Below are positions 24,388 through 25,413 of a stretch of DNA of 25,722 nt, piece by piece. Location of the stretch: the NCBI GenBank assembly GCA_016235455.1, contig JACRKZ010000103.1, positions 32,481 through 58,202 of the forward strand. Direction: 5' to 3'. Source of the stretch: Armatimonadota bacterium. GTDB lineage: Bacteria; Armatimonadota; UBA10988. Below the pieces are notes generated by a model, which saw nothing but the letters and a program-made list of their open reading frames with translations, did no database searches and was not told the origin of the DNA. Each line of letters starts with the position of its first letter. Positions within the stretch are counted from its first letter, which is position 1. Made by a program: the position numbers and the translations under genes.

Positions 24388-25020
24388 TCAGGGCTCGGGG
24401 ATGTTGTCTCGATTGTGCATCGTCGGCGCGGTGTGGATGTCGCCGCTGGGCCTGAGGGTCTGCTCCCAGCGCAGCCACTTCACGTGGCCATCGGCGAAGG
24501 CGTAGTTCGAGCCGTCGAAGTGCCGCTTGGCGTCGAGCGCGTCGAGTTCGAACTCAGCCGTGTTGTAGAAGACGTGATAGTCCTCCTCTTCCACAGTGCC
24601 CAGGCGCTCGGCGAACATGATCTGTTCAGCCGGGGTCTGGAACGCGGCCAGGCTGATGCCGTGGCCGAAGACACCGTTCACCAGGTAGTCGGTCTTGGTG
24701 GTGGTCGTGCCGCGGTTCGACATCGAGGGACAACGGAACACCTGGTCACTCTTGATGTACGGCTGCAGCGGTCGGTACCACGAGTAGCCCGTGGTGTGGT
24801 TGGCGTGCATGGTGGCCTCGTCCCAGTCCTGGCAATACTGGACCACGGCCAGTCCGATCTGCTTGAGGTTCGAGGTACAACTGACCTGGCGGGCCTTCTC
24901 ACGGGCCTTGGCGAACACAGGGAACAGGATCGCCGCCAGGATGGCGATGATCGCGATGACAACCAACAACTCGATCAGCGTAAAGGCAGCCGTCGACGGA
25001 CGGCGTCCACAAGTCTTCAT
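24388..25020 (-). CDS. Prepilin-type N-terminal cleavage/methylation, DUF1559, H-X9-DG domain protein
   Basis: [79 protein letters not shown]. Confidence 0.92.
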
Positions 25021-25074
25021 GGGAACTCCCGGGCGTAACAGGGTCGTGCCGACCCGAGGTCGGCGCGGGCAATG

Positions 25075-25413
25075 TCAGTGAGCCACGTGGGGAGGTCCGC
25101 GAACGGCGGGCTGGGTGGCGGCCGCGACGGTCGGGCGCGGCGTGCTTGGTGCCGGCACGGCACTTGGGGTCACCGGCCAGGGCAGGGCCGTCGCCGTGCC
25201 GGCCATGGCCGGCAGCGCCGAGGCCACGCATAGCAGGCAGTCGTCGGCCGTGCTCAGGCCCGCCAGCTGGGCGACCGGTGCTGGGCTGGCGGTGAGTACC
25301 AGGTCGCGGTGGGTGAGCGGGTGCAGTATGGCTAGGGCAAACCAAGCCAGCGCGCTCAAGCGAGCGAGCGCCGGATTGGCTCCATGGGCTGCACGGCGCA
25401 GGAAGCGCTCCAC
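25075..25413 (-). CDS. DUF2946/CruR-like leader protein (TM/signal helix, HxxxH, CxxC, C-terminal RGPP); putative ribosome-arrest peptide
   Basis: GTG start at 25413 with GAGGGA upstream; 112 aa MERFLRR...LSALAWFALAIL-HPLTH...DDCLLC...Pro/Ala-rich...AVRGPPHVAH; ends 54 nt upstream of the DUF1559 gene. Confidence 0.7.
   Translation of the reverse strand: MERFLRRAAHGANPALARLSALAWFALAILHPLTHRDLVLTASPAPVAQLAGLSTADDCLLCVASALPAMAGTATALPWPVTPSAVPAPSTPRPTVAAATQPAVRGPPHVAH

Follow-up and report, generated by a model that had tools for sequence, protein, structure and literature searches.

A putative CruR/CutF-like arrest leader upstream of a DUF1559 pilin-like gene in Armatimonadota

In a 25,722-nucleotide (nt) stretch of DNA from an Armatimonadota bacterium (assembly GCA_016235455.1, contig JACRKZ010000103.1; G000:C41:32481-58202 in our numbering, hereafter the window, the end of which is also the end of the contig), a short open reading frame (ORF) of 112 codons precedes a gene for a pilin-like DUF1559 protein. 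Our findings suggest that this ORF probably encodes a small peptide, exported or anchored in the membrane, that serves as a regulatory leader of the CruR/CutF kind; it would arrest its own ribosome at R105-G-P-P and control the pseudopilin encoded behind it. The original prediction, made from the letters of this DNA, was of an arrest leader in front of a DUF1559 gene, possibly a metal-sensing one, and comparison across genomes supports it. We base our explanation on the motifs of the ORF, their conservation and spacing, their recurrence before one pilin orthogroup and the statistics of mRNA complementarity, and from these we predict ribosome arrest, the topology of the peptide in the membrane, its binding of metal, the direction of the response and the exposure of the ribosome-binding site.

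The leader ORF and its family

The leader begins with the GTG at 25413 and carries C59-L-L-C62 at 25239-25228 and RGPP at 25101-25090, four codons before the stop, as originally described. From the N-terminus it consists of basic residues, a hydrophobic stretch, H31-P-L-T-H35, CxxC, a Pro/Ala-rich stretch, RGPP, H-V-A-H and the stop, with 42 residues intervening between CxxC and RGPP. The hydrophobic segment is a probable signal-anchor, the orientation of which we infer. The ORF was said to lie hidden inside a longer spurious call, and this proved to be the case: its frame is open back to the contig end (215 amino acids) and includes a 201-amino-acid ORF from an ATG at 25680. The G+C content at third codon positions (GC3) in this frame is 0.87-0.97 over approximately 25332-25100 and falls to approximately 0.53-0.67 upstream of 25413, and the 201-amino-acid ORF is therefore considered non-coding in its 5′ part. 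The homologs P0001 and P0002 begin just a few residues upstream of the position of the leader GTG.

The same assembly contains a second copy of the locus (C70:38891-39675, corresponding to window positions 24938-25722), which is 95% identical over 785 nt with 39 differences. Codons 1-69 of the two copies differ by five synonymous and no non-synonymous changes and codons 98-112 by two synonymous and no non-synonymous changes, with all nine amino-acid replacements found in codons 70-97. This pattern fits a peptide under selection at both ends with a spacer that is free to change. Both copies break at contig ends, C41 in the divergent upstream gene and C70 inside the conserved pilin N-terminus, and the C70 copy may have arisen by recent duplication or represent a strain variant that was co-assembled.

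A HMMER pass over 1.84 billion representatives found two leader homologs, of 116 and 125 amino acids (E-values 1.7e-6 and 1.9e-4), both of which retain HP[LF][TA]H, DSC[LQ]LC and PTVRGPP. Single-sequence searches with the 112-residue ORF gave nothing significant in 40 relatives, where matches outside the window's own genome were of low complexity (E ≥ 0.001), and no match in a word-indexed collection of 5.8 billion proteins at lengths of 61-196. Of the 68,793 six-frame ORFs of at least 50 amino acids in the window's genome, 173 carry R[AG]PP within their last 16 residues, and four combine it with a CxxC 44-52 residues before the Arg, two of these being the C41 and C70 copies and the other two evident junk frames. 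By its GC3 and its differences from the C70 copy, the 112-codon ORF looks translated.

An alignment of 25 leaders (A1) has a mean column identity of 23% and exactly four invariant columns, C59, R105, P107 and P108. H35 and C62 are at least 90% conserved, and A1 contains no conserved stretch of 7-10 columns. Of the H31-P-L-T-H35 motif singled out by the original prediction, which is present in the window ORF, relatives thus conserve H35 and not H31. Matches to the A1 profile (E ≤ 0.01) occur in 133 of 401 Armatimonadota genomes, representing 84 of 207 genera, and among 5.8 billion proteins the profile picked out eight, none of which has a Pfam domain; one family member is an NCBI protein labelled Armatimonadetes bacterium. 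We then considered further loci, made up of 80 extra profile matches and 9 from a profile search, of which 84 of 89 showed the leader-like ORF pattern (at two loci the second of two candidate frames was retained). The genomes in this further set are often related, with one genus giving about a dozen near-identical leaders, and all statistics reported here count related loci as independent, so that p-values are overstated.

The arrest motif in the 84 further leaders is RAPP in 51, RGPP in 28 and RSPP in 5, and it stands 1-4 residues before the stop in 73 of them (1-9 across the family). The first Cys precedes the Arg by 47 residues in 35 leaders and by 48 in 37, corresponding to 43-44 spacer residues in 72 of the 84. 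A hydrophobic N-terminal segment scoring at least 1.6 was found in 98 of 101 leaders, and 99 of 101 have at least one His between this segment and CxxC. The invariant residues and near-fixed spacing bear out the CruR/CutF-like R[AG]PP architecture that had been proposed, and CxxC and RGPP are conserved at homologous loci. A hidden Markov model (HMM) of 104 leaders, restricted to those from other genomes to avoid circularity, ranked the window ORF first of the 68,793 six-frame ORFs (E 8.4e-8) and the C70 copy second (E 2.5e-7), with the next match at E 0.08; the leader of a paralogous locus on contig C91 was not among the matches listed. Leaders that end in R-S-P-P include L083, L104 and L120, which precede ExbB genes, and L117; in ApdA/ApdP, RSPP is reported to be only partially arrest-competent (PMC7897499). 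One locus (L157, G141:C119:186653-189261) has two same-strand leader-like ORFs, each with CxxC at 47-48 residues and RAPP near the stop.

Recurrence before one pilin orthogroup and mRNA complementarity

Since single-sequence leader searches failed, recurrence of the leader was approached through the pilin gene. We searched for the pilin in 401 genomes of the phylum Armatimonadota and analyzed the loci of the 30 best matches (49-62% identity by tblastn). These contain 31 pilin matches, of which one is the window, one has only 65 nt upstream and 29 were assessable. We found that 20 of the 29 assessable non-self orthologous pilins are preceded, at a distance of 25-202 nt, by an ORF with R[AG]PP in its last 16 residues. 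With the window counted, 20 of the 21 pilin-linked leader ORFs contain CxxC, and the first Cys of these lies 48 residues before the Arg in 12, 47 in 4, 46 in 2 (including the window), 45 in 1 and 51 in 1. The pairing was also found in the low-GC genomes of loci L041 (GC3 0.24) and L032 and is therefore not a high-GC artefact.

The predicted recurrence before DUF1559 genes held for these orthologs and not for DUF1559 genes in general. Among generic DUF1559 loci from several phyla, a leader was found in 2 of 77, one in Armatimonadota and one in a Planctomycetaceae metagenome-assembled genome, and among the 107 DUF1559-like tblastn matches in the window's genome only C41, C70 and the closest paralog, C91, have one. 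Judged by this genome comparison, the pairing is specific to one pilin orthogroup rather than to DUF1559 genes at large. A related-locus search that used the single pilin protein as query yielded 51 pattern matches, of which none was confirmed. Downstream of the pilin, the 21 loci share no conserved partner gene; the ORFs there are heterogeneous and many are spurious. At the C91 locus (G000:C91:33988-35035, L047), the pilin is 60% identical to that of the window and the strongly diverged leader ends in ARRGPPVPAAD. This leader is Cys-rich, without CxxC at the canonical distance, and its likeliest start, aligned to the window GTG, is CTG; a lipoprotein reading of it was considered and dropped. 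The Planctomycetaceae leader (L199, JAXMBU010000007.1), which belongs to another phylum, lies 274 nt before its DUF1559 gene and has a His-rich stretch, CSVC, a 47-residue spacing and the ending ARGPPVV.

The identification of the downstream gene as an N-methyl, DUF1559 and H-X9-DG protein was sound, with all three signatures above their curated cut-offs: N_methyl (PF07963) at 31.2 bits (cut-off 21.2), DUF1559/SBP_bac_10 (PF07596) at 44.9 (23.3) and H-X9-DG (TIGR04294) at 28.3 (19). Residues H120, R139, Y148-H149 and H202-N203 are invariant or nearly so in the 21 leader-linked orthologs and occur in only 0-3 of 88 other paralogs of the window's genome (0-2 of 88 for H120, H149 and H202), and the pilin also has a conserved Cys pair, C48/C97. 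The structure model (predicted local distance difference test score 87.4) has a long N-terminal helix and a beta head; a Foldseek search of the PDB with it gave no match at E ≤ 0.001, the best being a type IV pilin at E 0.35. Genomes of Armatimonadota, Planctomycetota and Verrucomicrobiota encode tens to hundreds of DUF1559/H-X9-DG proteins, which to our knowledge have no known function. The 107 matches in the window's genome start near the N-terminus and form a very large paralog family, often in tandem arrays such as those on C65, C32 and C28.

The minimum-energy folds of the window pair CUCCC (25094-25090), in the Pro-Pro codons of the arrest motif, with GGGAG (25030-25026), the Shine-Dalgarno sequence of the pilin-like gene, around a 7-base-pair hairpin. 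We assessed such pairing across loci with a partner scan that took every 12-nt window between a point 120 nt ahead of the Arg codon and the ribosome-binding site and counted the strongest duplex. In 13 of the 21 loci, the strongest Shine-Dalgarno partner falls within the segment from the Arg codon to the stop (14.6% expected); the leader profile led independently to 16 further pilin-class loci, and in 8 of these it does so too (12.6% expected). The complementary pairs track the local sequence, as in GCUCCUCC/GGAGGAGC, GGACCUCC/GGAGGUCC, CUCCUUUUC/GAAAAGGAG and CUCCGCUU/AAGCGGAG, and in GCUCCUCC/GGAGGAGC and CUCCGCUU/AAGCGGAG the complementarity includes non-canonical flanks. The pair of the C91 paralog differs, being GGUGCCU/AGGCACC at +11, just past the Pro codons.

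Codon usage at the motif is also biased. Among the 15 Pro codons of the window leader, CCT is used only in the RGPP motif. It encodes the first motif Pro in 12 of the 21 pilin-linked leaders (31 of 189 for other Pro codons) and in 36 of the 84 further leaders (161 of 793 elsewhere), CCT being otherwise a minor Pro codon in leaders. The CUCCC/GGGAG pairing of the window, weak alone, is credible in view of this cross-locus complementarity. Arrest-dependent unmasking of the ribosome-binding site is thus, from these sequence comparisons, the most likely output for pilin-class loci, with Rho-type control a live alternative that is perhaps the rule in other leader classes.

Candidate signal, competing explanations and the locus

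The genes that follow the family's leaders bear on the signal that may be sensed. Of 82 further leaders, 17 precede outer-membrane receptors of the CarboxypepD_reg/Plug/TonB-barrel type, 15 N_methyl/DUF1559 genes, 7 ExbB, 6 PEP-CTERM proteins, 3 ATP-binding cassette (ABC) ATPases, 2 TolC-like proteins and 1 DUF7518, and 31 precede genes with no Pfam match. Two PEP-CTERM proteins checked against NCBIfam (L074 and L153), one encoded after a leader and the other after a leader-pilin pair, score 250 and 230 bits against NF040463, "all3515 family Zur-repressed PEP-CTERM protein" (cut-off 75). In two of the ABC loci a MacB-type permease comes next, followed in one of them by DUF3299; at L038 the pilin is followed by ABC/MacB_PCD/FtsX/DUF3299 genes, and at L039 by a gene for a ZnuA-family binding protein. 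DUF3299 is the ZrgE component of the Zur-controlled ZrgABCDE system, reported to be induced 76-fold in low zinc (PMC9817125), and the MacB-like operon PA4063-PA4066 has been tied to zinc deficiency (PMC8561739). Sibling leaders thus stand before TonB-receptor-like, ExbB, Zur-repressed PEP-CTERM and Zrg-like ABC genes, and scarcity of a divalent metal is therefore the most likely signal. Zinc, favoured by gene context, would be at least as likely as copper, favoured by analogy to CruR and the ligand of the only relatives that have been characterised.

The leaders themselves differ with the genes they precede. C-x-x-C-x-W is found in 21 of 24 leaders of the TonB-receptor/ExbB class and in 7 of 35 of the pilin class, and the stretch after CxxC is more hydrophobic in the pilin class (10 of 35 score at least 1.2); the family therefore has class-specific sub-branches. 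A number of leaders (L075, L076, L088, L096, L103, L109, L111, L141 and others) precede genes for secreted proteins of 400-480 amino acids with an N-terminal coiled-coil-like APDPALQxEIDxLKAQIQQ and without a Pfam or NCBIfam match; these may be porin-like outer-membrane proteins.

We propose the following sequence of events at the window locus. The N-terminal hydrophobic segment would bring the nascent chain to the membrane. With the ribosome at RGPP, the 42-residue spacer would place His35 and C59-x-x-C62 beyond the exit tunnel and across the membrane, where metal binding would set the duration of the arrest. The stalled ribosome would cover CUCCC and free GGGAG, and the pseudopilin would be made. 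Once arrest is relieved, termination four codons on would allow the pairing to re-form and translation of the pilin to drop. The His-rich pilin orthogroup would be part of a metal-acquisition response. We raise, more speculatively, the possibility that in Armatimonadota Cys2-His nascent-chain sensors replace or supplement Zur-type low-zinc control, with R[AG]PP codons serving as the anti-Shine-Dalgarno of the next gene and the His-rich DUF1559 pseudopilins (H120, H149, H202) acting as pilus-anchored scavengers of zinc or other metals. If true, DUF1559, a very large family, would gain its first function and the CruR/CutF class its first zinc-responsive member.

Several findings weigh against the proposed mechanism. 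The kinship with DUF2946 leaders that had been claimed for the ORF did not appear with the Pfam model itself: DUF2946 (PF11162, gathering score 23.7 bits) had no match to the window ORF at E ≤ 10, either as a protein or in a six-frame scan of the genome. Relatives mostly fall below the DUF2946 cut-off too, with 7 of 106 passing (1 of 22 and 6 of 84). The window spacer of 42 residues compares with a family mode of 43-44 and with the 45, to within one or two, reported for CruR-type DUF2946 leaders. Nine assessable orthologous pilins have no leader, though they keep the H120/R139/Y148-H149/H202-N203 signature. The link to zinc comes from a handful of loci, none in the window's genome, and in the window the leader-pilin pair stands alone. 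As for the mRNA, the fold energy of the leader 3′ end and spacer in the window equals that of shuffled sequences (z -0.2), and the best local Shine-Dalgarno partner is a hairpin arm (-14.2 kcal/mol) rather than the arrest codons (-11.1 kcal/mol). Constraining the fold with a stalled ribosome raises the unpaired probability of the Shine-Dalgarno sequence only from 0.21 to 0.33 in the window and, on average over the 21 loci, only from 0.11 to 0.15. The second motif Pro is also rich in CCT (34 of 84), which an anti-Shine-Dalgarno role does not explain, and part of the CCT bias could stem from an influence of codon or tRNA on stalling; in TonB-receptor/ExbB loci the bias is near background (5 of 24).

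DUF2946 is the commonest Pfam family among the relatives, matched by 12 of 22 at E ≤ 1 and by 14 of 84 at E ≤ 0.01, and the last position of its model aligns at R[AG]PP. The leaders above its cut-off are L027, at 23.8 bits, and six of the 84 at 24.9-28.2 bits, and DUF1559 genes follow three of these seven (L027, L085 and L090). We consider it fairly probable that the window ORF is related to DUF2946, though divergent and below its threshold, and works like CruR/CutF.

The same sensor could act through another output, with the stalled ribosome blocking Rho termination between the leader and the pilin gene, as CruR does (PMC9426467). The spacer is C-rich, spacers in the family measure 31-199 nt, and the near-background signal in TonB-receptor/ExbB loci noted above makes another output mode probable somewhere in the family. 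At 54 nt, however, the window spacer is short compared with the 162 nt of CruR, and the complementarity between the arrest-to-stop segment and the Shine-Dalgarno sequence, which is enriched in pilin-class loci, is not something that Rho control requires. We think this output rather unlikely for the window, and note that the two modes are not mutually exclusive.

It is also conceivable that the leader monitors secretion, membrane insertion or oxidative folding, in the manner of SecM, MifM or ApdA, and reports envelope capacity for prepilins rather than metal. ApdA and ApdP likewise combine an N-terminal hydrophobic segment with a C-terminal R[AG]PP (PMC7897499), RAPP upstream ORFs elsewhere precede DsbA/thioredoxin genes (PMC12992588), the pilin has its Cys pair C48/C97, and pilin-class leaders are often hydrophobic after CxxC. 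The invariant Cys pair, conserved His and fixed spacing are, however, the signature of CruR, and sibling leaders precede metal-uptake-type genes and in 0 of 82 loci a Sec or YidC gene. A monitor of this kind thus seems quite improbable.

Very improbable, in our judgement, is a stable small membrane protein, for example a metallochaperone or a pilin partner, in which R[AG]PP is conserved for a reason other than arrest. The conserved His and Cys could form a metal site in a mature protein, and the order of leader and pilin is constant. Yet conservation is confined to His/CxxC and R[AG]PP, with a spacer that changes freely, and a nascent-chain device accounts better for both the constant distance to a motif lying 1-4 residues from the stop and the mRNA complementarity found there. 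Lastly, long spurious frames abound in the window, R, G, P and A are common in them, and 173 frames in this 69% GC genome end with R[AG]PP, but a chance ORF with coincidental motifs is contradicted by GC3, the synonymous pattern against C70, the homologs, recurrence, conservation, profile rank and the presence of the pattern in low-GC relatives such as L041, and can hardly be entertained.

The features of the locus that we consider part of the leader-pilin unit or its boundaries are listed in Table 1. A URO-D-family gene diverges upstream from 25531, its start overlapping the upstream stretch of the leader frame. Given this divergent gene and, downstream, an inverted repeat and convergent genes, the unit consists of the leader and the pilin-like gene. 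The leader is its first gene, and the next gene encodes the DUF1559 protein, with 54 nt from the leader stop to the pilin ATG at 25020. The two differences from the C70 copy within the spacer hairpin, at 25057 and 25056, fall in its loop and none in its stem, which is weak evidence for the hairpin. The long inverted repeat at 24249-24284 is probably a bidirectional transcript end; it is absent from the terminator-scan list because it lacks a T-run. A consensus scan for promoters and terminators over 24150-25722 found none of either. Among six sequencing runs from three studies that contain this stretch, none is listed as RNA.

Table 1 Features of the leader-pilin locus in the window.
Feature	Positions	Strand	Basis
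Leader ORF, 112 codons and stop	25075..25413	minus	GTG 25413 to TGA 25077-25075; GC3, C70 comparison, profile match
GAGGGA, likely leader ribosome-binding site, 4 nt before GTG	25418..25423	minus	predicted from sequence
Hydrophobic N-terminal segment, residues ~14-30, after basic residues	25324..25374	minus	best 17-residue Kyte-Doolittle window 1.72, from residue 14
His35, just past the hydrophobic segment	25309..25311	minus	at least 90% conserved in A1
C59-L-L-C62, candidate metal-binding motif	25228..25239	minus	C59 invariant, C62 at least 90% conserved in A1
Variable Pro/Ala-rich spacer, codons 70-97	25123..25206	minus	no conserved columns in A1; all nine replacements relative to C70
R105-G-P-P, predicted ribosome-arrest core, four codons before stop	25090..25101	minus	R, P, P invariant in A1
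CUCCC in Pro-Pro codons, candidate anti-Shine-Dalgarno to pilin GGGAG	25090..25094	minus	paired with 25030-25026 in minimum-energy folds
7-base-pair GC-rich hairpin within the 54-nt spacer	25048..25064	minus	-15.9 kcal/mol for 25070-25042
GGGAG, Shine-Dalgarno of the pilin-like gene	25026..25030	minus	sequence
Pilin-like gene, 210-amino-acid prepilin-type DUF1559/H-X9-DG protein	24388..25020	minus	ATG 25020, domain matches
Long perfect inverted repeat 3′ of the pilin-like gene, between convergent genes	24249..24284	none	stem of at least 14 base pairs, -56.4 kcal/mol for 24300-24235

Convergent with the pilin-like gene is an Mvh-type hydrogenase cluster (19973-24224), which encodes a fusion of FlpD/MvhD, ferredoxin and pyridine-nucleotide-disulfide oxidoreductase, a small subunit (Oxidored_q6) and a [NiFe] large subunit, and is followed by a 79-amino-acid ORF without a Pfam match, also convergent with the pilin-like gene. 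We found no sign at the window locus of a functional link between this cluster and the leader-pilin pair.

Comparison with known arrest leaders

The pairing of an arrest leader with a DUF1559 gene appears to be undescribed, as had been surmised. Text searches found neither this pairing nor any published link of DUF1559 to DUF2946, arrest peptides or copper; target lists in the figures and tables of PMC9426467 and PMC12992588, which lie outside those searches, may contain it. The text of PMC12992588, as distinct from its figure 4 and source data, names no prepilin or DUF1559 target, and PMC9426467 mentions "a few" DUF2946 genes in Planctomycetes with their neighbours unnamed. The element would be a variant of the CruR/CutF class that scores below the family threshold and acts on a new target, possibly in response to a new ligand. 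A ligand-type arrest leader before one His-rich orthogroup, in some genomes with ZnuA-family or Zrg-like genes in the same string, makes a role of this subgroup in metal starvation testable and offers a first functional lead for the large DUF1559 family. It would also extend the CruR/CutF class to a phylum in which the curated family model mostly fails, to zinc as a possible new ligand and to a compact design in which the arrest codons pair with the ribosome-binding site of the next gene. Most such leaders are seemingly missing from gene calls, and their regulons would escape annotation-based surveys.

The background on CruR/DUF2946 and on ApdA, ApdP and ApcA from which the original prediction argued is borne out by the published accounts (PMC9426467, PMC7897499, PMC12992588). 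ApdA and ApdP are encoded upstream of secDF and ApcA upstream of yidC (PMC7897499), and RGPP is described as the strongest and most context-tolerant arrest core, arresting translation in several contexts (PMC12992588). Together with the set described in Streptomyces lividans, these leaders share with that of the window a small ORF, a localisation signal, an R-[AG]-P-P/G core close to the C-terminal end and a next gene in the same direction (PMC7897499, PMC10951233, PMC12992588). With an ORF of less than 300 amino acids, R-[AG]-P-P near the C-terminus, a predicted localisation signal and a co-directional next gene, the window leader has the features by which RAPP/RGPP arrest peptides are recognised (Sakiyama 2021; Fujiwara 2025), and it departs from Sec/YidC monitors in that its next gene encodes an N_methyl, DUF1559 and H-X9-DG protein. 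The Apd/Apc and Streptomyces leaders differ in preceding secDF, yidC or diverse Streptomyces genes and, as reported, in having no CxxC at a fixed distance. In SecM-secA and MifM-yidC2, stalling at the leader's 3′ end breaks up base pairing that otherwise conceals the downstream Shine-Dalgarno sequence (PMC7897499), as we propose here; these leaders have no sequence relationship to that of the window and sense secretion or insertion activity rather than a ligand. An anti-sigma zf-HC2 reading of the window ORF was dropped, as its His is not at -4 from CxxC and its hydrophobic segment precedes the motif.

CutF of Rhodobacter capsulatus offers a closer parallel in mode of action. It is an exported nascent-chain metal sensor whose stall at a C-terminal proline motif is proposed to melt a stem-loop by which cutO's ribosome-binding site is shielded (Ozturk et al. 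2023 and 2025; 10.1101/2025.02.05.636593), which is how the window leader would be expected to act. CutF differs in having CXXXC and an EF-P-dependent PPP motif and in turning on a copper-detoxifying oxidase at high copper, whereas RGPP, found here, is reported to be EF-P-resistant (PMC12992588) and the sibling loci contain uptake-type genes.

In architecture, the closest relative is CruR (Bp2923) of Bordetella pertussis. DUF2946 leaders are defined by CXXC and RAPP with 45 residues between them, to within one or two (Roy et al. 2022, PMC9426467), and more than 95% of members have an export signal, with the gene first in its operon (PMC9426467). CruR responds to copper, which relieves the arrest so that Rho then terminates transcription; its copper control is strongly impaired by changing CXXC to SXXS, and RAPP mutations abolish downstream expression (PMC9426467). 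In vitro, CruR has been observed to arrest with its two Pro codons occupying the P and A sites (Fujiwara et al., PMC12992588). Like CruR, the window leader is the first small ORF of its operon and has a predicted N-terminal export signal, CxxC, a near-fixed spacer and R-x-P-P near the stop; cruR precedes a TonB-dependent receptor, and sibling leaders here precede TonB-dependent-receptor-like genes. Unlike CruR, the window ORF goes unseen by PF11162, has RGPP in place of RAPP and a spacer of 42 rather than 45 residues, and belongs to a family with a conserved His where CruR has a semi-conserved third Cys. The 162-nt Rho-dependent region reported for CruR is replaced by a 54-nt intergenic region with Shine-Dalgarno complementarity, and the phylum is Armatimonadota instead of Proteobacteria. 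The target is a DUF1559 pseudopilin, in a gene context that points to zinc as much as to copper.

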